Source: Candidatus Omnitrophota bacterium
Lineage (GTDB): Bacteria; Omnitrophota; Omnitrophia; Omnitrophales; JACROU01
Length of the DNA: 64,000 bases
Reading direction: 5' to 3'
NCBI GenBank assembly: GCA_016214265.1
Contig: JACROU010000024.1
Location: forward strand, 5,223 to 69,222
Numbering within the stretch: position 1 is the first letter of the stretch; each line of letters begins with the position of its first letter. Positions 5,938 to 37,900 of this stretch are shown here, piece after piece. Below the pieces are notes generated by a model. The model ran no database searches. It had not been told where the DNA came from and saw only the letters and a list, made by a program, of their open reading frames with translations. A program made the translations under genes and the position numbers.

Positions 5938-6068
5938 TTCATTGCTCCCCGAATGCCCCAATCCTTTGGGTGACTAAGATCCATCTTCAGTTTTCTGTTT
6001 ATCCGTGTTTTTCCACTTGAAATTCCCAGGAATACAATTTCAAAGGAAGAATCAACATGTTGGTGCAA

Positions 6069-6097
6069 ACCTTACCTGCTCACAAAATCGATGTCAA
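6069..6097 (-). promoter_or_regulatory. Candidate promoter for gene A (TTGACA-N17-TAAGGT).
   Basis: On the minus strand, TTGACA is the complement of 6092..6097 and TAAGGT the complement of 6069..6074. It lies in the 240-bp gap between the gene B stop (6176) and the gene A start. Confidence 0.3.
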
Positions 6098-6175
6098 GCG
6101 ATTAGTCGAAAATAGTTGAAAATTCTCAGAAAAATCGTTTATTTTTCATTAAATACTTTTAACAAGCTTGAATTA

Positions 6176-9100
6176 CTAAGCAGCGGTTTCAAGAATCCGG
6201 GTTTTCTGCCAGAGACGAATTTGTTCCTCAAGAATGGAAGGCAAAAGTTCGTAGGTAGAGCTGTTTATATCCATGTGGCGGAAAAGATAATTCCAGTCGC
6301 TCTTGTTACCAAAGGCATCGAAAACAGTTCTCAAAAGAGCCGACCGATAAGCTTCTTTCTTCAGCCCATTTTTTTGATGGACAACACGGAAAGCGCTCTC
6401 CGGCCAGCTTTCATTAAATTGATGATTGAGGAAAACAACCTGGTCCGGTCGTAATTCTGTCACATTTCCATCGGGAAACATTGCATCAACGATTCTCGTT
6501 TGAATTCGTGAAAGAAGAGCTTTTAGATCGAGCCGGGTTGTCCTTTCTAAATTACCCCACTTGACAAGATACACGTGCCTGTCTTTCAAAAGTGAGCCGA
6601 ATTCATCCTCCACTTTTCTAGCTATTTCCTCGTCTGGGACAAGAAAAATCACACCCTGTGTCCGGTAATCACTGCGAAAATCCCGTTGCTTATCCAACAG
6701 TTGCTCCAAAACATCTGCATCGAATTTCATAACAAGCGGCGTAAAACGAGGCGATTGAATCACTGAAGGTCCAAGGTTTCGCCTGTTCTCCCCAAGACTT
6801 TTTCCGGAAGATGCCGGTTCGGGGGCGGTAAAGACAATGCGGTATTCATATACGCCATATGGATTTTTATAATAATCCTTCGTGTAACGCAATTCGCCTA
6901 AAATTTTGTCGGAGTCAATTGGCGGTTCCCAAGCTCCACTATCTTCCCGCTTCTGTAAATAGAATGCCAATCCGCCGCCTCGATCTGATAACACCAACGG
7001 TTGTTCTATTGTGATAATGTCATGATTTTTACTTTTTGCTTCTAACGCAGTCTCCAACGCCCAAAGGATACGTATGAAAAAGGCATGAGAGGTGTCGGCG
7101 GGCGTAGAAAAATCAGGCACGCTTTTGTAAATTTCGGACAAACGTGTTTTTAAAATCTCATAATCCTGGAGAAATTCAGCCATTAATCTTCCCTTAAATT
7201 CTTTTTCTTCTCCCACAAGCATTCTGCCAGTCTGATGTTTTGCCAACTTTGGCCAAAGATCGTATAATTCAGTTGATTGTTGTTTTTTGACTAATTCTTG
7301 CTTCTCGATCACTGCTCGCTCCAATTGTAATGGGACAGCATTCATCTCTGTTTGTAAAACCCGCAACTCATTATCGGAAGGTTTTTGATAGTACGCGTGA
7401 CCGGGGAGCTTTTTGGCAATAAAATCCACATTCTTTGCTGTCCCGGAATCCAGATCAGAAATCCGGCTTGCCCTTTCCAGAAATTCAGTAACCGCTTTCG
7501 AAAAATCATTTCTCATTTTATCGGGTATTTTTGCGTCAGAAACGATACCGAGCATAATTTTACTGGCATCCTTGAGCCAAACTTTCTGCCTTTCAACATA
7601 TTCTTGCGGCGTGTCATGAAATTTTCCATGTCTGAGGTGAAACAATTCTGCTTGTATCTTGAGAAACTGGATAAGCAGAGAATCATTGGATGTGTAACAA
7701 GTTAGGGTTTGCATAGCTCCGGTCTCATCCGTAAACATAATAAATTCCGGCTTAAAATTGGCGAACCCTCCCCCATGAATAAGTACGATAAGCCGCCTAT
7801 AGGTGTCAAAATGAGGCGAGATGCTGGGATTGGGGTTAGATGGATCAAATGGTTTTGGTGGCATCGGTGGAGCTGGAAGAGAATAATATTGAGGGTGATC
7901 CTCCACGTACTGCAACGATTTACGGGCTCCGTCAAAATCTCTGGCCCAAATTTGATCAAGAATTTCTCTTTGTGTTTGTCGAATGAAACTCATTCGATCT
8001 TCAACCCTTTTCTTTGAAAGATATGTAGGGATGTTGCTGATAGCTCCAGTAACAAGACAACCAGCGCTAATCAGCGCAAAAAGAAGACAGCCTTTTGAAA
8101 AACGTCTGGAGGGCTTTTTGTCGGTGTCAAGGAGCGCAACAACGGCCTGCGCTTTTTCTGATGACGCTGTTTTTCTGACTTTCTGAGCTGGTGATGGTGA
8201 TTTCGGCTTTCCGGTAACAGCCGCCGCAGTCGTGGCGCTGGCAGTTTTGGCTACAGCGTTTCGTTCCGACGGCTTGTTCAGCTGAAAAAGCACCGTCAAT
8301 TTGAAACGCTGCCCGACCTGGGGGGCAAAAGCACCGTTCACATCCACTTGTTCCGGCAACTTGATCGATTTAAGTCCGTTTTTATCAGCGGGAATTGGCG
8401 GCTGAAATTCCCGGGTCGCTGGATTCTCGCGCTGGACGAAAACAGTCAGCTTTCCCTCCTTTGTGTCAAATTCCAAGTTGTTGAGCTGAATCGGCTCGTT
8501 CTTCCTGCGGCGACTCGAAATTTCAGCAAGAATGCGCTTGAGAATTCTCAGATTATTTGGAACTTTGGGATCTGACGCTGAAAGCTCGAGCTCCCTTTGA
8601 TACGCGAGAATGACCTGCTCATAAATGTTGTCAGGTGTCGGCGGCAAAGTGCCTGATGCGATACCCAAACTTTTTCCGGAAGAAGCCGATTCCAGAGCGG
8701 TAAAAACAATTCGGTATTCATATTCACCCATGGGGCAACATATCCGTCTGACGCGAAATTCATCAAGGATAGATTGGTTGCCAATAGTCGGACACCACGG
8801 CTCATTCCCTTTCCGTTTTTGTAAATAAAAAGCTAACCCACCTCCTGGAGCAGGCAAAAATAGCGGTTGTTCGATACGAATAATTTCACCTCGAGATTTT
8901 TTTTCTTCCAAGATTTGCTGCAAAGTCTCTTTAACTATTGTCATAAAAGCCTTAGGGTGCCCGTTCGCTTGGTTATCTCGTGGCATCCCGTATAAATACT
9001 TCTCCACAATTTCACGTCCGCGAACAAGTTCATTGACAGGTCTGTCGTAATCACGAATCTGATGAGCTAGTACCGCTAACCATAACTCGAACAATCTATC

Positions 9101-16900: not shown

Positions 16901-19900
16901 AAACATCCGGTTTGTCTGGGCTTCAAGCGCGGCTTTGTCTTTGGAAAGTTCTTTGTGACGCTCGCTGAGCATGGCGCGAATCGAATCTTTTTGTTTTTCC
17001 TTTAGCTGTTCCTCGAGCCGGTTCATGCCTTCCCGGTTAATGTTCCAGGTTTCAAAAACGGCTTTGTCGCGTTTTGCGAATACGTCAACGTTTGCAAACA
17101 GCTCTTGGGCGATAGTTTGAATTTCACTCTCATTAATGACACCACGGTCAACAAGCTCTCGCAGATAAACTGAAAGCGCTTCCCGAGGATTAGCGAGGAA
17201 GGCGTTAATGTCATCAAGATTGTTGAGTCCTTTGACATAGTCAATTGCCAGTTGAGCGACGCGGTCTCCTTTTCGCGCGTCTTCTTCCAACGTATGGGCC
17301 CGATTGAAAAGTCGTAAGTCATGTTTCGGAATACTGTGGCCACGAATTTCTTCCTCAAGGTCATTATCGATTAACTGCCAGAAAAGCCGATCGTGCACTT
17401 TCCGCAGCTCTCCGGTTCGTTTCAGGAAATGGCCGTGCACATCCACGTAGAAGATGGTTTTGCCCTGAGCATTTTTCTCGTTGCTTGTTTGCACTGCCAG
17501 AGATTCACGAGAACTCATGGATTTTGTATCCGGATTAAAACGGACAACAAAAACACGGTCGTCCACTTTCGATTCACGCATCATCGCTCCGGCTTTTTGC
17601 TGCGCCTTTTTCTCGATTTCAGCGTAAATTTTCCCGAGCTCTGTGGTGGCCTTGAAATCCGCATATTCTTTTTCGAGCTGCTCGAGTTTTGCTTGTGCTT
17701 CTTCCTTCGTCATTCCCGCGGGCAATTCTTTCCTTCCCTCCGCGTAGGAGCGCATCGCCTCGATTCCCGTCTTTTCATCATGGAAGCGGGCGAGCTCTTT
17801 GTATTCCGCTTCATTCACAGGGGCGTTATTTTCCCGGTCAGCCTGAATGGTCTTTGAAATTAACGGAGCGATAAATGCGCCTAGCTGCGGCAGTTCTTTT
17901 AGCAAATCATCCCATGTTTTTCGCTCGGCTGTAACCGCTGTGGTAATTTTTTTGGCCAGCTTGTCTATTTCCGTTGTAACTTTTGGCTCCGCTCGATTGA
18001 CAATAGCCTCTGCTTTATCGCGTAATGCTTGCGCTTTTTCAGGCTGTTTTTCCTGAATGGCGTCGGCTTGGCGCAGTAAATCAACGGCCTTTTGCAAGTT
18101 AGCCAGTTTTCCTCGTTTGATTTTTAATTGCTCCAAAGCGGATTTTAAGTTTCCTTCAATTTCATTAAGAGAAGTCTGGTGATCACTCGCTCCTTTACCC
18201 CCCTTAGCTTCTTTAAGATAAGTCCGTATTTTTTCGATGCCATTGTCTTTAAGTTGATCGTAAGCGCTCTGAGTTTCATTATCCTTATCCGCTTTCTTTA
18301 TTTTGTTGATGGTTTTAATGATTTTCGCTAGCTGCGAAACCATCTTCTTGGCGTCGATGGTTTTATCCTCTGGATGATTCAGGCTGTAAACCAGCATCTG
18401 AACCCCGTTGATTAACAATTCCTTTTCTTCATCGGATACGGGAACCTTCTCAGCAATCAGGGCACGGGCAATGTCGCGTATCACAGATTGAGCACGCATA
18501 TTCGATGAGAATGGTGAAGCGAGAGCATATCCGATTTTGGCCAGCGCGTTTCTCACCGCGCCCCGTTGCTCATGAAGAGTGAGGGCCAGTGCCGTTTGTC
18601 CAATTTCAGCTGGACCGGGAATATCTTTGTAAGCGCCGGGATTTTGTTTGGTCTTGAAATCCCGGGCAGCAATCGAAGCATCCACATTCGCGGCGAAGCG
18701 GCGAATTTCATCCTGACGCATTTTCGCGATGCTTCCCCCATTCTTTGACGCGGCGACCGCCATCAAAGCTGCCTGGGCATCCAAACTAATAGGAGAGGTT
18801 TGAAGCAGCAAGGCCAGCTGGGCCATGATTTTTACGGGATCTTCTTTAGAGACTGAAGCCAAACTTTGTGCGGCACCCTGAAGTTTTCCGACAGAGTTAT
18901 TCCTGAAATAATTCGCGAATCCGATTTCCAGGGAATTCCACGTTTGTGCGACGCGGGTTCTAACACTGGGCCACAACAGGTCACGCGGCGATGCCAACGT
19001 CACCATGGCATTTCGTACCCAACTCTTTAATCCCTTTAACGGTCCCTTGATTTCTCCAAGCGTTTCATCAAGCCGGGCACGAGCGACCGCTTTTTTCTCC
19101 ATCGTTTTATCCATTTTGTCTTTCAAATCCTGGCCGTGGTAGAAGCGCTTCTCCTGCTCCTTCTCAAAATTGATAATGGGCTTGACCGCGTTCTGCAATT
19201 GTCTCGCGACATTTTTATCCGCGATATTTGCTGCAAGCTTATCGACGAGTTCTGCCATCGCGAGGCCACGGTTTCGATTGCTTAGCGCAGAAGTAATCTC
19301 CGCCTTAATCTCGTGCGTGCTCAAATCAACGCCGGATTTGCTCAAGAGATCAAGAAAATTCGTCATGGGAAGTACGGTTTTGAGTAGATCCGAATTGATC
19401 ATCCAGACCGGAATCGTTCTATCCTTCATCAGCGCGGCCAATGCGGCAATCAACGCTTTCTCGTCCTCATCTTTCGGAGGCGGAATACCCAACACTTTAA
19501 GCAGAGGTTTAAGTTTCTGCACAGCTCCGCCAACCCCTTCTTTCGATGTTTTCATCGCGGCGAACGCCTTCACCAAATCTTCACCGGTCGCTGTCAATTT
19601 GCCGCGTCCGTCCACATATCCCTGCTCGCGGGCCGTTTTGACTAATTGCTGGAATTCCGCGTCCGTAACAGATCCTTTTTCGATAATATTTTCTTTCTCA
19701 AGTTCTTTGACGTTATCGGAGGCGGAAATAGCACGGGTGGTAACGAAATGCTGAGCCGAGGGCTGCGGAGCCACTCTGGGGATATCGGTTTCGCGAATTT
19801 TCTGATTGATGAGACGTGCGACTTCGGCGGGACTTCTGGCTTCGGCAATGCCATGTTCTTTCAAGCGTTGGCCGTTTAAGTTTAATTCTTTCGTTTGATC

Positions 19901-22900
19901 AAACGCTTCACGTGTCGGCGCCCGCGCCAGATCCGGAACGACCATCCCCACTTTAACGCCTTCCACCTGTGACTCAATCACTTTACCGGTGGCATCGACC
20001 ACGATATATTTTGAACCATCTGCCTCCAGATACAGCGTTTTCGACGTATCGTTTAGCGTCAGCTCGCCCATCTGATTCATGGCTTTGATTTGTGCCTCGA
20101 TCTGATTCCGAATCGCTTCAGGCAATGCACTGGCTCTCGATGCGGTTTTTAAAATGGCCTCGAGGAATGATTTGTTTTTCTTTAAATTATTGCGCAGGCC
20201 GTCAATTCCTTTCTGAGCGCCGCCTAAATTCGTGTCGGTGTTCTTTCCTTTCTGCTCCTGAAATTTAGCACGCTCTTTTGAGAGCACTTGGATGATAGCG
20301 TCCTTCTCGCTTGCCGATAGTTTTGTATTCGCTAAAACATTGGCTTTCATATCTTCCAGGAATGTCACCAGCGCGGCATCCTGCGAATCGGTGAGGGCCC
20401 GATACATATTTTTTTGCACCGAATAGGTTTCGTTGTCCTGAAATGTGTTCCGGAGGGCAACGACGGCCAATGGGACGCGGCGGGTTTTGCCCGGAATTTC
20501 ATTTTCAACAATTTGCCAGTTTTCATCAACGATCACTTCTCTTGAATTTCGAATATCGTCCGTGGTTTTAAACTCTTCGATTACTTTACCTTCACGGTCT
20601 CTGGCCGCAAATCCGCCAATGAAACTCACATCCACTGAATGATATAAAGCCATGTTGTTGACGCCGGCATCACTAGGGCTTGTCGTAAAGAGTCCATCCG
20701 GTCGATTGACTTCTGCGGCAAGTTGTTCGGCTGTGATTTTCCCTTCCCGGAACATCTGGGCAGCACCCGCCGTGCGGGCGTAAACGAATTGATCGGAAAC
20801 TTTTCCGTTTTTGTCCGTCACGCGAATGCGGACACCTCGATCGCGTTTGACCAGCTGTTCAAAGTCATACATATTGGTCTCGGAATTGGCAAAAGCGTGA
20901 AAAGCCACATCCGGTCCCGTGGAAACGTCGACACCGCGTGTCGCGCCCAGGTTAAAAAATACGCCTACCCGTTCTCCACGTGCCTTGGCGTCCATCAAAT
21001 AAGATTTCAAGCCTTCCGACAGCGATTCCGTCGACCTTACTACTTTCCCATCCTTCATCGTGAGCTTAATCCACTTGGTTCCCTGATCTTTGATGAATAC
21101 CGTTTGAAACTGACCGCTTGCCAATAATTTTTCCTGTAACGGATTGATCATCTCCGCGGTTTCATCGATGTCTGATTGCCCATCTAGAAACACGTGATGA
21201 AAACTTGACGAGTCTTTATCCACGTTAATATTATCAAGTGCGGTGCGAATATCTCTTGATTGCGAAATATTGTCTTTGGTGAACCACCCCTGATCAAAGG
21301 CATTGGCGTACACATATTTGGCAACGTCCACATTATAAATTTTCTCTAAAATATTTTTCATGTGCATCAGTGTGCCTGAAAACCCGCTGAAATCGGATCC
21401 ACCTTTCCGGAACGCCATAATCGTTTCAAGCCGTGAGGAACGAATAGACTCGGCCGACTTTTTAATCTTTGAGAGAAAATCTTTGCGCGCTTCCGCCTTC
21501 TTAATGTCTTTTCCCAGGAATCTTAAGAAAATCAGCTGAGTGAACGCCTGCAGGTAGGCGTCGGATTGCTGCAATTGCGGAGCAACCGCATTACCCGCCA
21601 TCACTTTGATCGTGTCTCGAAGCTCAAAATATTGCGTGAATGAAATCAGATTTTCTTTGGCAGCGCGTTTGAATGTTTCCTTCGCCCGAAGCGCCACAAT
21701 TTTGGTGTCCGTGGTCGGTGTCCCTTCAATCAGAATTTTTATTTGCGCCGGTGTGAGCCCCATATCCCGGATATCGACCATGAGCGGCTGAAGCAGATTG
21801 GTCTCGCTTTGCGTGAGCTGACGCGGCGCTTTGACGCCCTCTTTCTCGAACATTTCAGCGTAATAAGCGATTTGACGACCTTCATATTGTTTGAGCGAAT
21901 TAGACAGGCCAACGAGTGAAGCGCGGAATTCTTTGACGATTTCGCGGCGATCTTCGACAAGCGAGTCTAATTCGGAATCTTTCATCTGAATCATTTTCGC
22001 CGCTTCAGCAGCCGTAACGCCCGGCATTTTCTTCGCTAGGGCTTCTGACAAAACATCCAGCAGTTCTTTATTGTTCAAATCAAACTTCACATCGTGAATC
22101 ACCGCGGCTTTTCCCTGGGCTTTTTGCTCTAAATATTGTGTCCACGACATCGGGCCGATGATTCTGTCTGATTTGTGGTCATACAACCTGACGTAAGTCA
22201 GACTTCTTAACGCGTCCAGATAATCTTTTCCTTTAAGCTCGCCGATTTTGCCTTTCCCCTTAATCTCGAAACCGAGAAGGATGTCATCAATCTCTGAAAT
22301 GTTATTTTGCGCGCTTTCGGCAATTATATCTTCCGAATCCTTGCCTTGTTTTTGTACGCCATTGGCATCGGCGTTGGTATCGGCTTCATCGTAAATCGTG
22401 CGGTTATTGGAGACCATCAGTTTGTGAAACTCGATTAAATTCTTCTGCGCTTGCAAATCGCGGACGTTTAACTGTTTCTCACCCTTGGTGTCCTTAAGCT
22501 CGTTATTGAGAAAATCAATGGTGGTGGCCTCCACGATGATAATGCCGCCTTCTGCTTTCATCTTTCTTAACTTTTCAAGCTTTTCGGTATCGCCTTGCGC
22601 AATGGCCTGCAAGTCCTCTTGCTTGATCACCATGCGATTCATCTTCTTTCTCTCTATCATTTTATTTAAATCTTTATCCTCCACCGTTTCCGTAAACAGC
22701 ACTTCATTCGGTAGAGCAAATATCGTGATATCCCCGTTCACCCGGCCGATGGAGTCCAGATGCTTTTGGAGCGCAGAATTTTTATTTTTTTCTTTATCGT
22801 TTTTGAAGGCTTGATTCAAATGCGCGGCAGCAGCAAAAATAACCGCTGTTTTTCCGGTACCGGCAGGAATTAAGTGGAAGGTGTTGCCATTGATGGCGAG

Positions 22901-25900
22901 ATTCACGACGGCCAGAAATACTTCCACATCATTTCGAATTCCCAGCTGAGAAAAACCATCCATCGTTTTGACGTAATCATCGACAGCTTCGTTAATGAAT
23001 ACGGCGAGAGCGCGCTGTTCTTTCGTTCCCACGTTTTCATCCGCGCGCATAATCACTTCTGTTACACCATTCTGGGAAGTGATGACTTCCTTATAGATAA
23101 CACCGCCTAGCGCTTTCCCCTTGCCGATGAGCGTTTTTTCAATAATTTCCCTGTGCGAACCCACTGCGCTTTTTCTCGCTTCTCTTGATTTGCCGCTATC
23201 CGATAGCGCCTGCCGTTTGGTGTCTCGCTCCGAAACCACCTTTCCGCGTTCTGCTTCAAGCGATGCAGTTACTCGCGCCGGCGGACCACGAGGTGCTTCG
23301 CGTTCGAGAAGGGCGATTTGTTGTCTGATCGTGGTCTCTTTCGCCAAAACTGATTTGAGATCCGACTGAGCCTTGGCGAGTTCTGCTTCCAGTGCCGCCT
23401 CTTGTTCCGGCCCGGCTCGTGTCGGCATGGATTTTTTGAGAGCATCGAGACGTTTCATATCGGCTAAACGGGTAGATTCCAAAACTTTCAGTTCATGGCG
23501 CAATTGAAGCAGTTGTTCGCTTGCTACCCGTGCTGCAGCCTTTTCGGTAGCCTTCGTCGCCTGTGGCACAGCACTTGGAGACAAAACATTTTTAAGTCCC
23601 ATCGTCTGAATAATCGAGGTCGCAAATGAACGCAGACCGATAATGTCTAGCCGCGCTAGTTCTAATGCTTTGGCCTTGGCATCAATTTCATTCGGATCCG
23701 CTTTCTCAGATTTCCTGAGCGCTTCAAGTGCGCTCCGTTGGGCCTCATACCGGCTTTCTTGTTGTGAAATAACCTTGGCCATGATTTCGAGCCACGCTTC
23801 CGCCTGCTTTGCATTGGATCTCAATGATGCATCGGTGAGCAGCTGGCTGATCTCAAAGGCCGTCAGATTTTCGTTGTTGCTAAGTTTTTGCTGAATGGCT
23901 GTTAAAAGCGCTGTTCCTGCAAGTGCAAAAGCTTGAGTCGGCCCTTGAATTTGAGCCGTTTTCAGAACTGCGATTTGCTGATCCGTTTCTCTGACTTGGG
24001 CCTCAAGTGTTTGCGCTTGGGCTTGCACTTCAGCTATCCGGGAATCCATCGCGGCTTTCATTGCGTCTGTTAAAACGTAATCGGGTGAGGCCTTGAGCGT
24101 TTCCAGCTCTTTGGCAAGCTGATCATTTTGAGTCTCGAGCTGGGCGATTCTTCTTTCGTAAGCTGCGCGCGCCGCGGAATCCGTTTCGACTTGAGCCAAT
24201 TTTGAAAGCGATTTTATCCGCATCTGATTAACACCCAATTGGCCTTCCAGGAAACTGGACCTGGTAACATAAGCTGGATTAACGCCACGCCGTAGAGCTT
24301 CTGCCTGAGTGCGTTTTAAATTTGTGAGATTTTCAGTTGCACGGCTAGCCTCCTGACGGGATTGATTGGCTTGGGTGACTAGCTGTCCGATTTTGTCGGC
24401 TCGGGATGACTCTTCGGAAGTCAATTTCTGCTTGGCCGTGACAAGGTATGAATCTGTTTTCACAACCTCTCCGGCCGCGTCGAGGTAATTGATTGAGACT
24501 CGTCCAGCGCTATCAGCCGTTATTTCGGACCGTGCGAGCGATTGAGAGGCATCGGCCTCAATATTCATCACCAGTTTCAGGTTGGTATCATAAACAGCCA
24601 TCTGCTTGTCATTCAGCACGGAAAGTCTTGAAACCAAATTGCCCGTTGCGTTTTGAATAATTATTTCCGATTGATTTTTTCTGGCGGAATCGTTGGTTGA
24701 AATTCTGGTGGTGGTTGAACCATCTGCTGATGCAACAGAGCTGATTTTAAGTCCGTTATGCCCTGCAATCGTCATCAGCACGTTTCCATTAGCATCCTGA
24801 GCCACAAATCCTACGTCGTTTCGCGCCAAACTCATAATCGGCATTGGACGACCCTCGGCATCTTTGACAAGTCCGGTCTGCCCCCCCTGTTTGAATACAT
24901 CCACTCGCAAAATATTTCCTTGCTGATCCATGGTGATGGAATATTCCCCACCTTCGGAGGTAATCACTTTTGCGACAAGATTTCCATTTATGTCTCGCGA
25001 GGTATCCAGTCCGATGATATCGCCTTTCAGCTCAAGCTGGGGAGTCTCTCTGTCACCAAAAGTAGTTCGATTATCTCCACGGTTGATATTGAGCGCTGTG
25101 CCTTCCAGGACAATAGAATGATCTGTCACGATGAGACTGTCTGTTTTATCTACACTCGAACTGAATATAATTGCCGCCGTGCCTTCCATCACTGCGACGG
25201 CAACTTTTCCGCCCTCACGAACTTCTCCTCCCAATTGAGCCATGACGACTTGACCGCGCGCAAGGGCATTCACCAGCAAACGAGGTGAACCCTGATAATT
25301 TTCGAGAATCGAAATCAGAAGCACCTTGTCGATCTTGTTGATATTTTCAGCAAAAAGCCGGAGTGTTTCGGCATCGATTTCGGAGAGATCTCGATTCATA
25401 AATAGACGAGCGACGAGACTCGCGGCATCCGTTGATTCGGAGGCAACTGAGTCCATCAAATTCTCCACGGCTCGTTCATACGCTTCCCTGGCAGTAACCG
25501 CCGCTGGCGCTTCCTTGACAAGGCCTTGCTGTCTTTCAATCATCTGAGAGATTTTAATGGCCAGTGCTTTCGGATCCTTCAAATCCGCTTCGCTGATGTA
25601 GAGAATTTCCTTACTGTTCGAATCAATGCTGTAAGTTCCGGCTCCGATAAATACAGCAACTTCGTTGAGAAGCCCAATTCCGCCAGTCATTTCGAGGGCC
25701 AATTTTATTCCCCGGTCCAACGAATTTTTTACCTGCCCCGCGTCTCCCCGAGTCATCTGCACTTCCGCCCCTTCATTAGTAAGGCTTGCGGTACCGAAGA
25801 GTTCAATCTCAAGCTCGCTTAAAGCGATCAACTCAACGTTTCCGTTCACCAAAGCATCTTCCAGGATGGCCGCTGCAAGCTCCATTTGTCCCTGAAGGAC

Positions 25901-28900
25901 AAGTTCGTCAATAAGCGTGAATACACCGCTCTGGATTTTTAACCCCTCAACAGATCGGGTTGCATCAACACCTTTTGTAATTTTGATGAAGAGATCTTTT
26001 AGGGAGGCGCTGTCTCTGCCCTGCTGATAATTTTGAACTGCCAATTGCGCAAGAACTCGAAGACTTTCAAGATAAGAAGAATTTAGCAAGTTCTGGGCGG
26101 TATCAAATTCAGCGCCGCTGGTGACTTCACGCGACGCCAAATCTGCGTTTAAAGCTTCTGCAGAATTTAAGACATTATCAATCAGTAGCTGAAGCACTGC
26201 ACTGGTATCAAGGTGTGATTTTTCTACTGCCAGTTGAGTCAGCAGTAATCGACTCTCAACCAGAAGTTGTGTATTCACTGCAAGCTCAAGTTGTACGCCG
26301 GTGAGACCGGTACCAGCGGCTTGTGCACGTTCAAAGGATGCAAAAACCTGAGCCGAGGTGACGGTACTTGAAGGAGTTGACACAGCGACAACAGGGACTG
26401 GTACATTATTGTTTTGTGCCCGGAATGTGGCCAAAACAACTTGCTGTGATTCATTGACTAGTCTGAGTAATTGAACAAGGGCCAGGATGTTTTCTTCGGA
26501 CGCTGATTTTTCAAGATTAAGCAGTTTGAGTAAATCATCCAGGCTCAATTTGGTTACAATCACGTTGCCGGCCGCATCCAGACTGATCATTCTTCCCCCG
26601 TCGGGCGTAACGATCAACTCATAAGCTTTCTTGCTATCCAAAAAGCCTTGAATATCGGTGCTGGACGGTTCTCCTGACTCCGGATGATTGTGCGTCAGAA
26701 GTTTTACCTGATCCGAATTTAAAAATGCGGTTAACGCATCAGTGGTTCGAACCTCTTCCGTAGTTCCCGTGGAATAGACGACAAATTTGCCACCCACAAC
26801 AACAATCAGAACCTCGTACCCAAGTTTTTGAATTCTCTCGAGCATCGAGAGAGTGAATGCATTTTCTTCCATCACAAAAGCAACTGGCTTTTGCTGTCCG
26901 GGTTGCGCGTTAAAGTCGAGAGCATCCATGATGGGGCCGAATGCCTTCGTTTGTATGGCTAGATTGAATGTGGAAGTCGTTATTTGTTTAATCTTTGCCT
27001 GCTGCACCGCCGGCATTTGATCGGCTAGCGCCACCATCTGCGCGAAAATCCCCATTTTTTCCAGAATGTTCACCCGGGAATCTTGTAACTTGCTATTTAA
27101 AGCATCGTACTGGGCTAACAAATTCATCATGGTTTCAGCCGTCTTCAGAGATTCTCCCGTCATCGCACTGAGTGCTCTCATATTATCCATGGGCAGAGCG
27201 GCCTGAGAAACTTGAGCGATAATCTCGGGTGTAGCGTCTGTTCGCTGTGCGACTGCTTGCGTCAACGCATCGATACTTGCCATGGCGGATTTCACCTGAA
27301 TTTCGATAGCGGCCAGCGCATCACGCGCAGCTTTCATGACTGTCGGATCCGTGGTCTCGGCGATAATTTTCTGAAGCGCGCCGGCAGCTTCCATTTGAGA
27401 TTGAATTTGCGCGATCAAGGTCTGAATTTGGGTTGATATCGCCACGGCATCAATCGGGTTTGCGGTGTTTTGAACACTGGCGGTAGTGTCCGTCACGGGC
27501 TGCTGGGCATCAGTAATTGCCTGCGTTGTTTGCGGAGCCGCTTGCCTGTCACTCACAATTGTTTCCATCGCCAAAACACGGCTGGTCATTTCCGTGTTTG
27601 TTTGATTGATGTTGGCCGCGGCCGCAACTGAAAGATTTTGCGCAAGAGCGGTGGCAATTTGATTCAATTCTGTGAGTGATTCACGTGCTGCCTGAACTCC
27701 CTTTTGTGCGAGCGCCGGATCGTTCGTTGCTGCGGCGGCATCAAGAAGCATTTGGATTTCCATTTGCAAATCCGCCATGCGCTGAAATTGATTTGCGATT
27801 TGTGTGATAGCGGCCAAATTGGATTCTAGCTGAGAAACTTGTTTTTGAACTTCCTGAACAACCTGTTCGCTGACCACTCCTTTGGCCTGCAATTCCTGAA
27901 GAATGGCGAGCGTCATTTGAGCTGATGCCACAGCATCGCGGGCTGTGGTTTCAAGCGTGCGAGCGCTTTCGAGTTCCGTCGCGTTCTGCGTTCTGGCGGT
28001 TGCCTGGGAGATGGCTCCCGTAGCATCACTCAAACTGCTGACTGCTTGAGATGCCCTCGTTACATTTGCTGCCTGCTCGGCCAGACGTGTTACCACATTT
28101 TGTGCGGCTTCAACCGCTGATTGGGGAACAAATCCTTCCCGGGCCAGCTGTTGAATAGTCGCAAGATTCGCTTCAGCAGATGCGAGGCTTGCTTGGATAT
28201 CGCTAATGATTTGCCCCGCCGCTTGCACGTCAAGATTACTTTGCGCGGTTTGCGCACTTTGTTGTGTCGCGACTGCATTCGCGTCAATTTTTGCAGCAGA
28301 CACGGCGGCTTTCTGGGCTCCAGCGAGTTCTGTTTGTGCCTGTACGGCCGCTTTCGATGTTTGATCGATTTCGGCTTGGGATGCTCCAGCAGCTTTCTGC
28401 ACATCCATCTGCTGAAGCAAATTATTAAGCCCCTGGGTTTTCATCATGACGACGTCCGCAAACGCCTGCGCAGCATCCATACGCTCTTGGTCACCCGACT
28501 CTTGAGCCTCTTGCAGTTGTTTTATCGCGTCATCAATGCTCGCGATCTGAGCATCAATCGCGGCATTACGTGCCGCGGCATCTTTTTGCGCCTGAGTCCT
28601 CATATCTTGTGTCGCTGTGGTGACTGTGCCGTCGGACTGTTGAGTGGCCGTGACTTGCTGACTGTCTGTGGTAGTTACGGTAACCACCTCGTTACCTGAA
28701 CTATTCGTCGCGACTTCAATATTGGCAGCCGTGCCTGCCTGAGTCATAACCACATTACCGTTTGAATCCAACAATTTGATTTGCGACTCTTGCCCAAACT
28801 GATTTTGAGACTCAATCACCGTGTTTCCACCGTCGGTTTGTGTGACCGTGAATTGAGCGCCCGTGGTCAATGTGTACGTGGTTTGCGTTCCTCCATCCAC

Positions 28901-31900
28901 TTGGGTTGTGACAGGAACTCCGGACACAGTACCATCAAGAGACACAACAGTTTGTCCCACATCACTCGTGAGTGTTGTCGAGCTTGTTGTTTTCGTAGTT
29001 ATTTGAGTGATAGTTCCCGCATCCGTTCGAGTAACAACAACGGATTGGTTGCCTGACATCTGAACGATAAAGATTTGCCCCTCCTCAATCGATGAAACGG
29101 ACGTGACGGTTCCGCTAGTCTGAGCAATAAGATTTCCATCTGAATCTCTAATTTTAGTGGTATTCAATGTGCCATACACGTTTGTCTGCTGAATTACCGT
29201 TTGGCCCGAGGGGGCTTCGGTTACCACAAAACTGGTGCCAGTATCTGTCTTATAAGTAATCTGCTGATTTCCAGATGCATCGGTGGTTACAGGTGAGGCA
29301 CTCGTAATTTCCTGAGTTGTTGCCAAAATTACAACTCCTTCGGTATTCGTCACGGTTGTCTGCACATTACCAACTTTGTCGGTTTCCTTCACAATGACAT
29401 TACCGGCCATATCCGTTGCTGAAGTAACAGTCGAATCAGTAAATGCGACTGTAATCTGAGTTCCTCCAAACGGACTTGGCGAAGAAACAATTGAAGCCGC
29501 TGAATCGGTTACAATGTCGGCAACCGTTCCCTGCGACGAGGTGACAACGGTTGTCGTACTTCCGTCAGTTTGTGTTGTTTGAACTATCGTAAAACCGTTT
29601 GGTGAAGTGGTAACGCTCGTCACAGCGCCAGCATCCGAAGTAATGGTTAGCACGGTATTGCCATTCTGATCCGTGCTCGAAGTAACATTTTGAACTACTC
29701 CGTCAATCTGGCTGATTTCGCTTCCTTTTAGATCATAAACTTGCGTGGATGATTCCGCACCTTTTGTCATCGTCAGCGTCGTAAGCGAATTTGTGGAGGA
29801 AAGAGTCACGGTCTGCCCCGTAGTCATGGCGAGTGAAACATTAATTTCGCCATTTGCTCCCAAGTTCGCAGAAGCGGAAATCGGGGATCCCTCCTGCACA
29901 CCTAACGTGTTTCCATAAACATCTTTGAATGTTGTTTGTGCCGTTCCGTTCGCATCTTGCGTTGTAGTTACTGTTCCCATCAATTTCGTTGCAGAATAAA
30001 GAGTTCTTTCGGATGTCGTTGTGCCCGTTTCTGCGTTAAATTTGATCACAAATTTTGTTCCATCTGCCAGCGTGAATGTTGTGGCCTCCGCCGTTACCGT
30101 CGGAGACGGTGTGGAAGTCGCAATCTCACCCACAACGACGTTATTGGGACTTGTGACAGTGTGCGGACTTTTTACACCGTCGGCAGTTTCACGCGATGTA
30201 AGCAGCGTTCCATTGTTGAGCTGATAGACGACGACTTTGGACTTATCACCAAGCGTGTAGGTTGAAAGAACGCCGCTTTCCGTTGTTTCGGTTGCAATGA
30301 ATCCAACATAAGTGGACTCAGCCATGACAATTTTTCCGCCGGCCGACTCAATTTCCGAACTAACATTCCGGTTCGCGTCCGTTGTCTGCCTCAGTATCTG
30401 CCCACCGGGCAGCTGTTCAATTTCAAGGATGCTATCTTTCACCGCAATCGTAATCAGCCCGTCCTCGGAAACTGACAAGGTCGTCACCGATCCGGCAACA
30501 GGCTTTGACAAAGCCCTGCCTTGTGCGTTTTCCACCGTAGTCGTAGTTGTTGTTCCCTTCGTCGTACTGATAATTGCATCACCTGCAAAGCTTCTGCTTA
30601 TAGAAACAGTACCTGCGGAATCTGTTTCAATTGTGGTCGTTGTCAGACGTGTTTCAGGACTGTAGCTCTGACGAACCGCGGTTACAGCGCCTTGAGTTGA
30701 GGTCAGAAATTTTCCGGTAGCATCGAATACACGAGACTCAGCTGCGGCTCCGCTTCCCTTGGCAACAACGATGGTTCCGTTGGGGGCCTGTTTAATTGTG
30801 GTTGTGACACCGCCCTGAATCTGAATAGTGGTTACGTCATTGCCATCGGCATCTTTGCTGATTGCCGGCGCATCGATTGTTCCGGAAATTTCTGTGATTT
30901 TTTGACCCGACGCGGTGAACACTTGGGTTTGAACACCTGCTATTTTTGATGTCTTTGTCACAATATCTGTTTTTTGAGCGTTGTGTGTACTCGTAATTAC
31001 ATCACCATTCACAAGCGTAACCGTTAGTTTTCCAGATGCGTCTTCCTTCGCAGATTCAACCGCGCTATCGCTTGTAAAAATTTCCGCCTGGCTTGAGCTG
31101 TAAATTGTTGTTCGAACCGGCTGTCCCGCTGTTTGGATTTCCGCAACTGTTTGCAGTGAAGTTCCTTGAATTAATTTTACGCGTATTCCATTGGCAAAAG
31201 TAATGATCGAAGTAACAGTGCCTTCAGCATCCGTGCCCGATTCGCTCGACACCACGTCGCTTGGAACCGTAGCAATAATGATTCCGGAACTCGTTTGAAT
31301 GACGCTTGCGGATTTTTCTGCAGATTTCCGGGTCATAACGGAAACTTGCTGTGACGTGCCCGGATTAAGACGTGATGTTGTTAGCACGGAACCGTCAGGC
31401 ATTGTTTGAGATTCCGATGACGTCGAGCCTTGAGGAGCTGCTCCCAAATCGGTGAGATTATTTACCCCACCAAGAACCGCGCTCAGAAAATTTTGAAGGA
31501 GTTGATTCTCTACATTCGCCTGCACTCCGGCGGCAGCTTGTGTTGTGGCTTGAGATACAACCGCTTGTGTTTCGCTCACTCGCTGCGTTTCGACTGCACC
31601 TACAAGATTGCCACGGACATTGTTAAATGTATCCTTTGCCAGATAAGCGGCAAGATCTTGTTGAATAGCCTCATTGGTTCTAGGCACCAAAGTGGGCAGA
31701 ACTTCCTCAAAAGAAATATCGTATTTCCTTTCTTCTACAGGAATTAGCGTGCTTAATTGCGTTCTCAATTTTTCTTGATCTGCTTCGCTGAGGCTTGAAA
31801 TCAGAACTGTCCAATTCTTAGACAAGATTTCTAAAGCTAATCCTTGAGGCAAACCATTAAAAGCGCCCGCTTCATTAACGGTCATTTTTACCAGCACACC

Positions 31901-34900
31901 TGCAATCATATTTTTTGCTTCGAGATTCAGAGATTCAAGAAGTCCTGAAATTTCCGAACCAAGGGCTGAGAATGCGGCTGTCTGCTGGGCTCCGCTTTGT
32001 TGAAGCATCAGAGCAAAAGAGGCTGCAAATTGATTTTGTACTTCCATTGACTCGCTTAAGTTTGACGCAATCGACTTTAAATTGTCGGAAAGAATGTAGA
32101 TGGCGAATTCGGCCGCTTTCGGATTTTCTTTGTTCAGCGCCTGAAAAGTAAGTCCTTCAATGAACGATTGTTTGTCAGCCAAATCCATGCCTGCCAACAC
32201 TTGAGAAAGCTGATCGTGCAGTCCAATCGAAAGGCCGTCCCGAAAAGCGGTGTCACTCTCCGCGCTTGAAATTTGGCCCATGAGCCCTTCGAGAAAAGCC
32301 AGCCGTTCTTTGGAAGTAGCAGCAATTTGAGGAAGCAAAGTGCCGAGTTTTCCGGAAATGACAATGCCGAGTATGCGACGTCGTCCCTCGTCTTCTGGCG
32401 CAGTCTTTTTACTGCTTTCGATTACGAGATTAATAAAATTTTTCAGCTTCTCGGCCTGAGTTGCTCCTGGGACCTCTGGTGACATCAAATCGGGATGATC
32501 CAGTAATATGGCAATCATCCCCGCTTGTGTTTCTACAGGATTTGCTGAAGAGCTATCGAACGCCATCTGATGCGCGATGCGAATCACAGCGGCTTTATTT
32601 TCCACGCCCAAAGCGTCTTGAATATTATTTAAATTGGAAAGCAATGACGAAACAATAATTCCTGCTAAAGCAGGATTATTGGTGTCCTGAGCCAGGCCCA
32701 TCAAATAACCCACAACCTCATCTCTTTTGGTTGTGTCTGTGGCGGCAAGAGAATTGAGCATGGCGGGAAGATTGGTATTGATAGCATGCATAATGGCCGA
32801 TTTAGTTTCATTGCTTATATTTGCATCACTAACCATTCCCACGAGCTGTTTAAATAAGTCTATAGCCTGAGCACCTGCCGCCTGTCCGCTCAAGGTTTGC
32901 GTGACGATTCCCCAGTTTTTAACTAATATTCCGATCAAAGCGCTTTGAACTTCCGGGCGTGCTTGCGGATTCAATCCCAAAGCAAGTAGATTATTGATCA
33001 AATTCACTCTATCACTGGCATTGTCGAGCGATGCGAGAATCACCGGCAAATTCTCACCTACGGCTTGTGCGATTTGGAGCGCCTGATCCACTGTAGCGGG
33101 ATTAGACAAAGCGTCGGGTGAAGAGAGAAAATTCAGAAAAGTTGAAAAGAGCAGTATCGCTTGCACCGAGGAAGCATTGCCTTTAATCTGCCCGATCAAA
33201 TTAATATTTTGTCCTAGTGCCAGAACTGTGGCCGTCCTGACCTCAGGTCTCGTCGCCGTGCTTTGTGCTATCGACATCAGATGATTCACAAGTGCCGTCT
33301 GACGCGCGGAATCGAGATTTGCGAGCTGTGAAATACCACTTGTGATGAGCGCAGTGGTTGTCTGTGAATCCAAATCTCCCTGTTTAATGAGGGCAAGAAT
33401 TTGATCGGCCACAACTCCGTCTTCCGCACCTTTGATACTTCCTGTAATATGAGTAAGAACCAGAATGGCGTTTTGGCGAACTGTGTCGTTGGAGTCCGAG
33501 AATAAAGGCCCAAGCGAATTAAAAACTGCAAAAGCTTCCTCGCTTGTTAACAAGGAACGAATACCGAGAATTGCTTCCTGGGCCGCCACGGAAGTTTCAC
33601 CGGATTTCATTGCTTTGATAACGGTGTTCAAGGCCTGGGCACGGGCCTCTCCTGTCATATTCGGAAACACTCCGCTTAGGGCACCAAGTGAGGCATTGAC
33701 AATCTCCGGTGAAGAACTGTTTAAACCCTCAAGAATCGCATGAATCACAGCTTGCCGTGTTTCTTCCGCCATGGAAGCGATGTTTGTCGATAAAGAACCC
33801 ATAATTAACACTTGGAGGTTGTTTTTTTCCGAAAAATTTTCAGATATTTTTAGCGCATTTAACGCTGCTAAAGCGCTTTGAGTATTCACCGCACCTACTG
33901 CAAGGTTTTGTAATGACAGATGGTCTGTATTCACCCCGGCGGATTTTAATTGTGCTTTCAATTGATTTAGATTTTGAAGCACCGTCACCACATTGTTTGC
34001 ATTGAGACCAAGTTTATCTGCCATAATTGCGATATCTGGAAGTGAAAACTCTACGGCAGAAATATTCGGTAAACTTTCGCGTAAAGACATAGCGGCTTTA
34101 TATATTTCCCCGATCACACCCGTCGTATAGTCCGAAGTGTCTAGAAATCCATAAGCTTGAAGCTGGGCAATTCCTGCCAGATTCAGTCCCGCAGCATTAG
34201 GGTTGATTCCCTGTTTCTCAAAATAATTTCGCGCAACACTGAGCTGGCTTAATACTGCCTGAGCGCCAACCAGATTTTGTCCGAATCCGTTGCTCTCGAA
34301 TTGAAGAATATCCTGAACTGAAAACTCCGGAAGATTAACGGTATAACCCAAAGCCGCTCTCATTTGCACGGTGGACTGAATCAGATTGCGCGCCGTGGGA
34401 CTCATGCTTGCGGATGAGAGTGAATCAAGGTTTACCGCTTCGCCGCGAGCGGCACTATTCACCATTGAAGTTGCCACCGCCGCCTGAACCAAGGCGGAAG
34501 CATTTTCAGTGGACAATTTGACATTTCCGTTATGCGCTGCGTCGATCACCAACAAAATGGCATGATCCAAAACCGTAGGATGATTTTGCTCAAGGGATAT
34601 GAGCGTGGCAAAAGCAGAAGGATCAATAAGCTGTCTCAGAGTTTCCAATGCATCCGATTTCAGGCCTTCAAGGACCGGCAGGTTGAATTCTTTATTAACC
34701 TTGATATCGGCCTCGCTGAAGGTGAATCCTCCATCAGGAAGTTTGATATTGGGCAAAGTTTCCCCAGCGCGCTGAGCAACGAGAGCGGTGCGCATGGCCT
34801 GCAAACTATTGATAAGATTCTGGTGATGCTCAGCCTGACCTTCTCCACCTCCGGAGATAGCTTCGGCAATGTAGGTATCAGCGAACTCCTTGGCTGTGTT

Positions 34901-37900
34901 TTCATCAATTCCCATCCATTTGTGAAGCACATAGGTACCGAAGAAATCGCCGGCGAGTTCCTCAACAAAAGCTTCATCGATTACGCCGCCGACTTGCTGA
35001 CCGACAAATTGCCCCAATTTTGAGGCGAAATTCTGGCTGATTCTTCCTCCCAGCTTGGTGGATAATCTCCCCATCCAATCTCCGGTACTTTCACCGGCCT
35101 TATTGATTCGGACCCAAGAGTTCCAAATGCCTCCGATTCCTGTAGTCGTTTGTTTACCAGATGAGTCAGCCGTAACTCCTAGAGTATCAAGGGTCCTTGT
35201 TACCATTCTTACGGAAGATCCCATCGAAACGGAAAATCCAACCTGGCTTTGAACGCTTTTCAATAAATTCATCCCAAATGTGCCTGCGGCGGCTGTAAAT
35301 CCTGTTCCCATCGCGGCTCTTTCAGCGGCAGACATGCCAACATCAAAAGTCTGTCTGAAGAATTGTACAAACGGCTGCTCTTTAATGCCATTTAAAATGG
35401 CCCGGCCCCAAGATTCCTCCCCTCCTTTGAACAAAGTTCCGAGCAAATTTTTTCCGCCGGTTTTTATGGCGTCCCAGGTAACACTTGCTGTTCCTTTTAA
35501 TCCGGACAAAAGTGCAGAACCCAGCCCAGTGGTTCTATAAATGCTTAGGGCATCATTGAGCACAGTGCCGAGACGGCCCAAAAGTCCAACCTTGCTGGCC
35601 GCCTGCTTTGATACCATTTTAGCCAGTGTCGACCCGACGGCGCTCATGCCTTTTGTGCCAATTGCGCTGGCAACACTGCCGACAATCACAGCTACATCGG
35701 CCAGAAATGGTATCCACGATTTTTCGCCTTTCTTCACATTGAAGTTGCCAAGCGAACCTGTGGATTCCAATGCTGGAATCAAAAGTCCCGCAACAAGTCC
35801 AAGGGCAGGACCGCCAACAATGGATAAAGCGGCTAAGGAAGCATAAGTTGCTGTTTGAGCCACTTGATATCCTGCAGAAATGGCCGTATAGATCCCGCCT
35901 TTTTTTGCCGCATAGTCGTAAATGAGTGCGGCACCATCCTTTTGATTCTGTACAAATGTCTCATCAGTTAAAAGTTGGTATGCTTGACCGGCAAGAGTAT
36001 AGTTCTTGATAAAACTTCCAATGGGAGAATCCGCAATGTAATTGAATGCTTTTCCCGCAACATTGGTAATTCCGCCCCATGCTGTAGAGAGAGCGCTTCC
36101 TACTGTTGATACAACGCTACCGATTGATTGACCCATAAACGAAAATGTATCTTTGACGAATTGCCATGCGCCTGTTTGACCTGTTGAAGTCATCTGTGCC
36201 TGCTGTGTCTTCGGGACTGGCGCAAATTCAATTCCGCGAAGCTGAACAGTATTCGTTATTGTAGTAGTATCATTGGCAAATTCCCGGCCGGCAGCATCAA
36301 AACCGTTCTGAGCCGCATTGAACCAATAATTAAGCGTCGAATGAAACCAATTAGTTTCTTTTTCCGTTACAGATTCGGTTAACTCTGTATTTTGGAAAAT
36401 TTCACTAGTAAGATTGGCGTCACCGCCGCCATATTTTTTTAGAGCTATGCCCTTTGCTTGTGTCAGGTCAGTAACAACTCGATTTTGGTCATCCTTTATA
36501 ATATTCCCGTCCGGTCCTCGATATAAGGTTATTGGTTCTCCAACAGATTTTTCTCTTCTGTAATTTTTTCTAACGCCGTCCATATCTATCGTATAGGTGC
36601 CGAGCTTAAACCTGCCATATTCGTCAATCACAGTTCTGGGCTGCTGAATGTTTCCGTTCTTGTCTCTGAAAGCGGTGCTGATATCAGTAAATCCAGTAAA
36701 ATTACCGGCCTCATCTTTCAAGCGGATATTTCTGTAAGGGAGTCCATCAGCGCCAAACCCCATGGTTCCAACGTTAACGAGCTCACCTTTTGGGTTGGTG
36801 TCAAAGAAGTTATATCCCAAAGAACCATCAGGTTTTTTAGAAACAACTGCCGCCGAGCCCACTATGGATGAGGAACTTTCACCGACGAGATTGCGTATAG
36901 CGCCGCCTGCACCACTCGGATCATTGCTTACGATTACGATGCGTAGTGCATTATCATCCAAAGGCGGAGTGAAATATAACTTGCCATCTACTACAATACG
37001 AACGGCAACTTCCTTCATTGCGCCCGATACATCAGCTGCAAAAACGCGGGTAGTGTTTATCTCTGTAATTTGTGGTTTACCGCCGATATTTGCTTCAACC
37101 AGTTTTTTGTCAACTTGTAACCTTGTGTGTTGCACCTGCCCCTTATCGTCGGTCCTATCTATACTAACTTCAGTTCCAATAGGTCCCTCAATGGTTCCGT
37201 TGTCATTAAGAATAGCGCCCGATTTTGTGAACCGCACGACTGTATTCTCGCCTAACTTAACGGGCTGCGAAATGTCTATAGCGCTAATTCCGCGCGATGA
37301 TCTGATGGAATTATTTGCTTTGTCTTCAATCGTTCCGTTTTTCACGACATTGTCAATGACAACTACACCGCCCCGATAAATCACCCCCTTTTGATCTGTA
37401 AATCCATCCTGCACATCCATGCGTGTTTTACCGTCAACAGTAATCGATGTTGTCTGCTCCTTCCCTGTGCTATCCTTTTGCGTAATAGATCCTTTAGTCA
37501 AAACATTATTTTCCATAATTGATCCTGCTGCCAAAGTGGTCCGGCCCTCATTGTCTAGGCTGATGTCTTGAAGTGCTTTGATCGTAATAACTTTTCCATC
37601 AACAATGACCTGTTCCTGCTTCTCTGAGCGAAGCGTACCGGTAATCTTCTGCTTTCCATCAGAATCAATAAATATAACGGTTCCTGCAATGAGGATGGAG
37701 CCATCCCTATCATTCATGGCCATGTCTGTCTGAAGTTTCTGGATTCCGAACTGTTTGCCGTCAGCACCGATCTGATACGTAGTCACAGAGGCAATAACTG
37801 GTTTTCCATCTGCTCCCAAGACTATATTGCCCGTGAGCGGATCAGTTTTGTATTGATTGATAATCATCGTTCCATTCACAACTTTTGGTTGCCCATCTTT

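Follow-up and report, generated by a model that had tools for sequence, protein, structure and literature searches.

The subject of this analysis is a predicted ATP-driven motor carried by a giant protein of a Candidatus Omnitrophota bacterium, encoded in a stretch of 64,000 nucleotides (assembly GCA_016214265.1, contig JACROU010000024.1, positions 5,223 to 69,222), which was analyzed at its full length and is referred to below as the window. The giant open reading frame (ORF) encodes 14,531 amino acids (aa), and toward its C-terminus we identified, with high confidence from the conserved motifs and the predicted fold, a superfamily 2 (SF2) motor of the twin-RecA type. On the same grounds, this helicase-type ATPase is complete and probably active. 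Among the sequences collected here, the motor constitutes a distinct lineage, with giant proteins of Candidatus Omnitrophota as its only hosts so far. Motor ATPases were already known in the giants of this phylum, and what is new here is the unannotated lineage together with its novel inserted domain.

The core of the module consists of a first RecA domain, an inserted domain, and a second RecA domain, and the alignment of the relatives revealed motifs I, Ia, Ib, II, III, V, and VI conserved in the canonical SF2 order (Table 1). An original prediction, made from the sequence without database searches, had reported PAGTGKT and IYDEAD about 157 aa apart, and both were located within the single ORF at aa 11567-73 and aa 11724-29; GTGKT begins at aa 11569 (window ~22861) and DEAD at aa 11726 (window ~22390), which gives exactly that spacing. 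A G.GK[ST] followed by hhDE.[DH] 60-250 aa further on occurred in 0.13% of 3,000 composition-preserving protein shuffles, and the motif I/II pair is not a product of chance. The family consensus of motif I is IPAGxGK[T/N/S/G], of which the GK is invariant, and motif II reads DExD (x = A, V, G, S, or F) in every relative covering these positions. The GFSGTL of motif III, the GATRGVD of motif V, and the QL..RDRG.R of motif VI were likewise invariant or almost so (alignment A3). The last of these corresponds to the arginine-finger-like QLVKRDRG of the original prediction, which proved to be a conserved motif VI at aa 12237-46 and which lies outside the interval 21900-22900 originally proposed for the module. 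That interval does hold motifs I to II but includes just the first half of the insert, the core being as delimited in Table 1. The best-conserved stretch of the whole motor family is a signature that reads APRLQQSDPYLxAHTQLVF at aa 11995-12013. Upstream of motif I, the family exhibits a Q-like motif (R.GV.Q), of which the window copy lacks the Gln, and the likeness of the motif Ib-like IDFLNNELK to the FDYLRDN of SecA is one seen by eye, without statistical support.

Variation within motif I was observed in one subclade (P0002, P0003/L004, P0004, P0010/L008, P0017, L003, and L007), where the motif reads G[GV]GKN and an Asn replaces the Mg-coordinating Thr/Ser. These sequences retain DExD and motif VI, and the other motif I variants found among the relatives finish in GKS or GKG.

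The fold was predicted with AlphaFold2 for aa 11500-12290 on a 14-sequence alignment, which yielded a twin-RecA SF2 motor (predicted local distance difference test, pLDDT, 76.5). A Foldseek comparison of this model with the PDB ranked Bacillus subtilis SecA first (3jv2_B, E 7.7e-7), and the highest template modeling scores also belonged to SecA entries (0.34-0.40), followed by DinG, MDA5/RIG-I, and DdmD. SecA ranked first in each of the two structure searches, and its lead over the other SF2 proteins in these model-based comparisons appears real but marginal. The strong structural matches were all SF2 proteins. Since no SF1 protein was found among the top matches, the SF1/RecD-like ATPase that the original prediction had entertained as an alternative was rejected, in agreement with the DEAD and ResIII matches of the relatives described below. 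The more general claim of a helicase-type P-loop ATPase module is well borne out by the conserved motifs III, V, and VI and by the predicted fold.

Profile and sequence searches with the window copy itself were nearly silent. The Pfam search on the module returned nothing but a weak DUF3638 match (E 0.004) over motifs Ib-II, NCBIfam and PADLOC gave nothing significant for either the whole giant protein or the module, and the PDB sequence searches (phmmer and profile) produced no match or noise only. A significant profile hidden Markov model (HMM) match, which had been proposed as a check on the original prediction, was therefore not obtained from the window's own sequence, but this negative is overridden by the predicted structure and by the relatives, four out of 14 of which matched the Pfam families DEAD and ResIII at ~1e-6. 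Two relatives exceeded the Pfam cut-offs, P0009 for ResIII (26.3 bits vs. 22.5) and P0011 for DEAD (26.3 vs. 26).

When 1.84 billion representative proteins were scanned exhaustively with HMMER, 17 relatives of the module were retrieved, 12 of them at E ≤1e-10, and most were pieces of very long proteins. Pattern scans using alignment A3 added seven loci from genomes and six from metagenomes, bringing the total to ~30 relatives. A word-indexed homologue search returned nothing with the single sequence or with alignment A1, and a genome contig scan with the single window sequence was likewise empty, whereas the same kind of scan with alignment A3 gave loci. The relatives bearing a taxon name were all Candidatus Omnitrophota or Omnitrophica, and in NCBI they are annotated as “hypothetical protein” or “tetratricopeptide repeat protein.” Wherever a contig was long enough for a judgement, the module resides within a giant open frame that extends past the 10-kb flank and terminates 1,700-2,300 aa beyond the second RecA domain, as does the window ORF, and in every relative with sufficient sequence a transmembrane cluster precedes the module by 600-2,500 aa. 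BLAST comparisons limited the homology with most relatives to aa 11500-12800, with no other stretch in common; longer collinearity was restricted to L006, L010, and L011. With the two closest relatives, L010 and L011, identity reaches 48-64% over aa 11500-12300, falls to 12-35% directly upstream, and amounts to 24-45% farther downstream. These sequence comparisons indicate that the module is a conservation island under selection within a fast-evolving protein.

Between motifs II and III, the module accommodates a family-specific domain in the position that the PPXD domain occupies in SecA. The Arch domain of XPD is likewise inserted between these two motifs. The structure search found no match for the inserted domain (aa 11731-11979), which is neither PPXD-like nor Arch-like. 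Beyond the second RecA domain, the conserved extension includes a stretch at aa ~12624-12675 (window ~19541-19696, minus strand) with a sub-threshold match to the Pfam family wHTH-PRTase_assc (E 4e-4, 20.7 bits vs. a cut-off of 27), and this wHTH-like stretch was conserved in several relatives.

From its sequence, the host reads as a giant membrane protein composed of a signal peptide or signal anchor, an extracellular-looking half, a transmembrane anchor at ~aa 7245, and a C-terminal half bearing the motor. The signal-peptide-like N-terminus of the original prediction was recovered as a hydrophobic segment at aa 25-43. The N-terminal ~7,200 aa are rich in Thr, Asp, Asn, and Gly, look extracellular, and include an RHS repeat, the only Pfam family above threshold across the entire protein. 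The transmembrane cluster combines one strong and one weaker segment, and marginal hydrophobic segments were also detected just beyond it at aa 7148 and aa 7417. In the C-terminal half, which is again ~7,200 aa long, the cluster is followed by a Thr/Ser/Val-rich and beta-rich-looking stretch (aa 8500-9560, up to 21% Thr), and then by ~1,700 aa of Ala/Gln-rich, coiled-coil-looking sequence (aa 9700-11400) ahead of the motor, which sits ~2,200 aa before the C-terminus. BLAST detected no internal repeats in the giant protein, and no RTX repeats were found in it. Under a strict hydrophobicity cut-off, the protein retains one signal segment and one strong transmembrane segment, which would place the N-terminus outside and the C-terminal half in the cytoplasm. 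There is no cysteine in the whole protein, the motor included, and the fetched stretches of L003, L006, L008, and L010-L015 (up to 7,006 aa) were cysteine-free or contained <0.3% Cys. Given that the neighboring genes are also Cys-poor (0.05-0.6%), this low content partly reflects the locus as a whole. In the relative P0002, all 16 Cys residues are paired, 7-12 residues apart, in the N-terminal region preceding the transmembrane segments.

Giant Omnitrophota proteins with many transmembrane regions have been described previously, most of them encoding divergent SecA_DEAD and SecA preprotein-binding domains; these SecA-like domains lack scaffold and wing, follow C-terminal transmembrane anchors, and were speculated to act in export, the region bearing them being treated as intracellular, and similar divergent domains also occur in some actinobacterial giants (West-Roberts et al. 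2023, bioRxiv 10.1101/2023.11.21.568195). An architecture cluster based on PF07517 has also been reported among giants, in a catalogue in which 15% of the proteins of at least 10,000 aa have no Pfam match and 39% combine a signal peptide with transmembrane helices (Nielsen & Lui 2026, bioRxiv 10.64898/2026.06.07.730766). A motor in such a protein, considered unexpected in the original prediction, is therefore less of a surprise, as domains of the divergent SecA_DEAD type located after a transmembrane anchor were already reported to be common in giant Omnitrophota proteins. The window protein resembles these published giants in being a giant Omnitrophota membrane protein with a fast-evolving motor that follows the anchor toward the C-terminus, and the Pfam model SecA_SW found no scaffold or wing in it. 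It differs in that the published domains were found by SecA_DEAD and SecA_PP_bind HMMs, neither of which matches the window protein or 14 relatives, and in that its insert is not PPXD-like.

Compared with the SecA motor itself (NBD1 and NBD2), the module shares the twin-RecA SF2 architecture, the large domain inserted between motifs II and III, a GxxGT in motif III, an xRGxD in motif V, a Q..R.RG.R in motif VI, and the association with a membrane. However, SecA models do not match it, its insert has a different character, the window protein gave no sign of a helical scaffold or wing domain, the 157-aa spacing between motifs I and II exceeds the ~100 aa of Escherichia coli SecA, and the motor is fused within a 14.5-kaa protein, whereas SecA is a soluble protein of ~900 aa. 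With the XPD/Rad3/DinG group, including CasDinG of CRISPR type IV, it has in common the accessory domain between motifs II and III, the SGTL of motif III, and a motif I-II spacing longer than that of DEAD-box proteins; yet the insert gave no Arch match, motif II is DExD and not DEAH, and the ATRGVD of motif V is not of the XPD type. An XPD-like motor with a 4Fe-4S cluster was rejected, because the cluster domain requires four Cys between motifs Ia and II and the protein has no cysteine. The DEAD/DEAH-box and ResIII families (PF00270 and PF04851) are the only Pfam families that the relatives reach, but the window copy falls below detection and lacks the Q-motif glutamine, its motif III is not SAT, and its ~250-aa insert and ~500-aa conserved extension are absent from those families.

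The reading of the motor that we tentatively put forward, while giving it somewhat less than an even chance, is that of a SecA-like polymer translocase or remodeller, cytoplasmic and tethered to the membrane, which would serve the export or assembly of giant surface proteins. As the motifs and the predicted fold indicate, ATP binds between the RecA lobes through the Lys/Thr of motif I, the Asp-Glu of motif II, and the arginines of motif VI, and its hydrolysis would open and close the lobes. The insert would project from the first RecA domain at the site of the SecA preprotein clamp or the XPD Arch, where it would be placed to grip a linear polymer running across the lobes. As the motor is translated last, other copies or the neighboring large secreted proteins would be likelier targets, reached in trans, than the N-terminus of the same molecule. 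An ATPase needs ATP, which argues for a cytoplasmic motor, and both the architecture and the published precedent favor the cytoplasmic side over that of a delivered effector. Besides the structural ranking, hhalign placed motif III, the first strand of the second RecA domain, and motif V of the family profile in register with E. coli SecA, whereas no in-register alignment was obtained with human eIF4A (both query sequences were checked against the PDB). Several observations weigh against this SecA-like proposal. The hhalign scores for SecA and eIF4A (E 0.02-0.09) are not significant; SecA_DEAD (PF07517), SecA_PP_bind, the scaffold/wing model SecA_SW, and the NCBIfam SecA models matched neither the window protein nor its relatives (thresholds of E ≤10 for the module, ≤0.1 for the whole protein, and ≤1 for the 14 relatives); and the sequence matches that the relatives do have are to generic DEAD/ResIII, with a single weak Cas3 and type IV DinG. 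A motor translated last could also give no co-translational help to the export of its own N-terminal half. If the second hydrophobic segment (aa 7285-7303) likewise spans the membrane, the two segments would form a hairpin, leaving the C-terminal half outside together with the N-terminal half. Past the anchor, both the Thr/Ser/Val-rich stretch and the coiled coil resemble a surface protein, and a lack of cysteine, which here extends to the motor, is typical of exported proteins; this composition, together with the surface-like sequence between anchor and motor, keeps an exported location alive.

A rather unlikely competitor is a DinG/XPD-, Cas3-, or RIG-I-type motor working on nucleic acids as a helicase or translocase and equally tethered to the membrane in the cytoplasm of the producer, whose possible tasks would include the handling of very long mRNA, the anchoring or import of DNA or RNA, or a ComFA-like uptake. 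The exclusively DEAD/ResIII, Cas3, and DinG character of the relatives' sequence matches speaks for it, and the conserved SIRSSR and RASLVGR together with the weak wHTH-like match would suit nucleic-acid binding; the GFSGTL of motif III also resembles the TSGTL of the XPD family, in which the Arch occupies the corresponding place. Such a helicase is disfavored by the missing Fe-S cluster, by an insert without Arch match, by motifs V and VI that are nearer to those of SecA or DEAD-box proteins than to those of XPD, by the first rank of SecA in both structure searches, and by domain searches of the giant protein and its relatives, which turned up no enzyme domain acting on nucleic acids, nucleases included. 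The hairpin topology, in which the segments at aa 7245 and aa 7285 both span the membrane and the C-terminal half comes to lie on the extracellular-looking side, leads to a different and improbable scenario, in which the C-terminal half would be exported and the motor would reach the inside or the surface of a prey or host cell, where it would act as an effector on the ATP of the target; MARTX toxins and phage or conjugative polyvalent proteins offer a parallel in their effector domains. The absence of cysteine from the 14,531 aa and its absence or near absence from the relatives, the surface-like sequence ahead of the motor, and the RHS repeat would all be consistent with such an effector, and some Omnitrophota are predators or episymbionts, with giant proteins that have been linked to prey attack. 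Nevertheless, neither translocation, processing-protease, or secretion-signal domains nor RTX repeats were found, the window contains no secretion-system genes, low cysteine extends to the neighboring genes, the conserved order of transmembrane cluster and motor is more simply that of a cytoplasmic tail, and the published precedent puts this region inside the cell. Comparably improbable is a bolder proposal, according to which an unrecognised SF2 lineage with a clamp-like insert would be the sole conserved engine of cysteine-free and elsewhere hyper-divergent giants and act at the predator-prey interface, either as a prey-delivered effector or by drawing nucleic acid or protein of the prey through the membrane of the attacker, and not in housekeeping export.

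By far the least probable explanation is that the motifs arose by chance or belong to a decayed pseudo-ATPase serving as a structural spacer. The window's own sequence without a significant HMM or PDB sequence match would agree with it, as would the GGGKN subclade, in which an Asn stands in for the Thr/Ser that ends motif I. Against it, the module forms a conservation peak with a confidently predicted SF2 fold, and GK and DExD are invariant even in the GGGKN subclade. The chance-motif version was rejected on the shuffle test, the seven ordered and conserved motifs, and the predicted fold.

The giant gene belongs to a run of five consecutive large genes that share the minus strand, and apart from its RHS repeat, Pfam content is absent from four of the five, the exception being the 480-aa gene with AAA_14 and DUF4143 domains immediately downstream of it. 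No equivalent of this ATPase was seen downstream of the related giants, where a check for conserved neighbors showed only unrelated housekeeping genes; directly downstream of the related giant L001, in a metagenome-assembled genome of Omnitrophota, we observed a gene for a 23S rRNA intervening-sequence protein (PF05635; 11318-11698, plus strand). The 1,952-aa gene further downstream in the window harbors a 300-nucleotide repeat (8268-8567 and 10137-10436; 97% identity, 1,869 nucleotides apart) flanked by weaker repeats, and this internal duplication gives rise to two similar halves with a hydrophobic segment in each. An Rfam search of window positions 1-6300 returned no match, this region being the end of another large ORF. 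ARAGORN reported a 90-nucleotide tRNA-Pro(tgg) at 58846-58935 on the plus strand, inside a 1,879-aa ORF on the opposite strand, and it is probably a false positive.

Table 1. Positions in the window of the motor module, its host protein, and the neighboring genes
Feature	Protein position (aa)	Window position	Strand	Remarks
Giant ORF hosting the motor module		13970-57565	minus	14,531 aa, uninterrupted, no cysteine; second of five large genes in a row
N-terminal hydrophobic segment	25-43	57437-57493	minus	Signal peptide or signal anchor
RHS/YD repeat	3722-3752	46310-46402	minus	Pfam PF05593, E 6e-15
Transmembrane cluster	7245-7263 and 7285-7303	35657-35833	minus	Strong transmembrane segment and weaker hydrophobic segment
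Thr/Ser/Val-rich stretch and Ala/Gln coiled coil	8500-11400	23366-32068	minus	
Whole conserved module	11500-12800	19166-23068	minus	Common to all relatives
SF2 ATPase core	11535-12290	20696-22963	minus	RecA1, inserted domain, RecA2
Motif I / Walker A	11566-11573	22847-22870	minus	IPAGTGKT
Motif Ia-like strand and helix	11616-11628	22682-22720	minus	FALPNEVLFTETV; family consensus LPNxxLF
Motif Ib-like	11683-11691	22493-22519	minus	IDFLNNELK; family consensus aLDFLnn
Motif II / Walker B	11724-11730	22376-22396	minus	IYDEADT
Family-specific inserted domain	11731-11979	21629-22375	minus	~250 aa; includes conserved RASLVG..LKQ.EG
Return strand and family signature	11985-12017	21515-21613	minus	APxLQQSDxYLxAxTQLxF
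Motif III	12060-12066	21368-21388	minus	SGFSGTL
Motif V	12206-12214	20924-20950	minus	LGATRGVDV
Motif VI	12237-12246	20828-20857	minus	QLVKRDRGVR; bears arginine fingers
Conserved C-terminal module extension	12291-12800	19166-20695	minus	~500 aa
First of the five large genes in a row		57771-63410	minus	
AAA_14 + DUF4143 ATPase		12216-13658	minus	480 aa; immediately downstream of giant gene; Pfam E 4e-32, 4e-27
1,952-aa gene downstream of giant		6176-12034	minus	Internal duplication
Open frame leaving the left end of the window		1-5973	minus	At least 1,991 aa; signal-like N-terminus

Nothing known is overturned by these observations, as motor ATPases fused to giant Omnitrophota proteins have been described before. 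Giant Omnitrophota proteins are almost devoid of recognizable domains, and Pfam recognizes next to nothing in the window protein and its relatives. A conserved and probably active ATP motor, as judged from sequence, would be the first enzymatic feature in this giant subfamily. Further relatives can be detected and assigned with the signature APRLQQSDPYLxAHTQ in combination with GFSGTL, GATRGVD, and RDRGVR, and the ~1,300-aa module offers an expressible target that avoids the 14.5-kaa protein. HMM surveys undercount the motor domains of giants, and what has been published for most giants, the possession of a SecA-like domain, may also hold for some that were scored as being without one.

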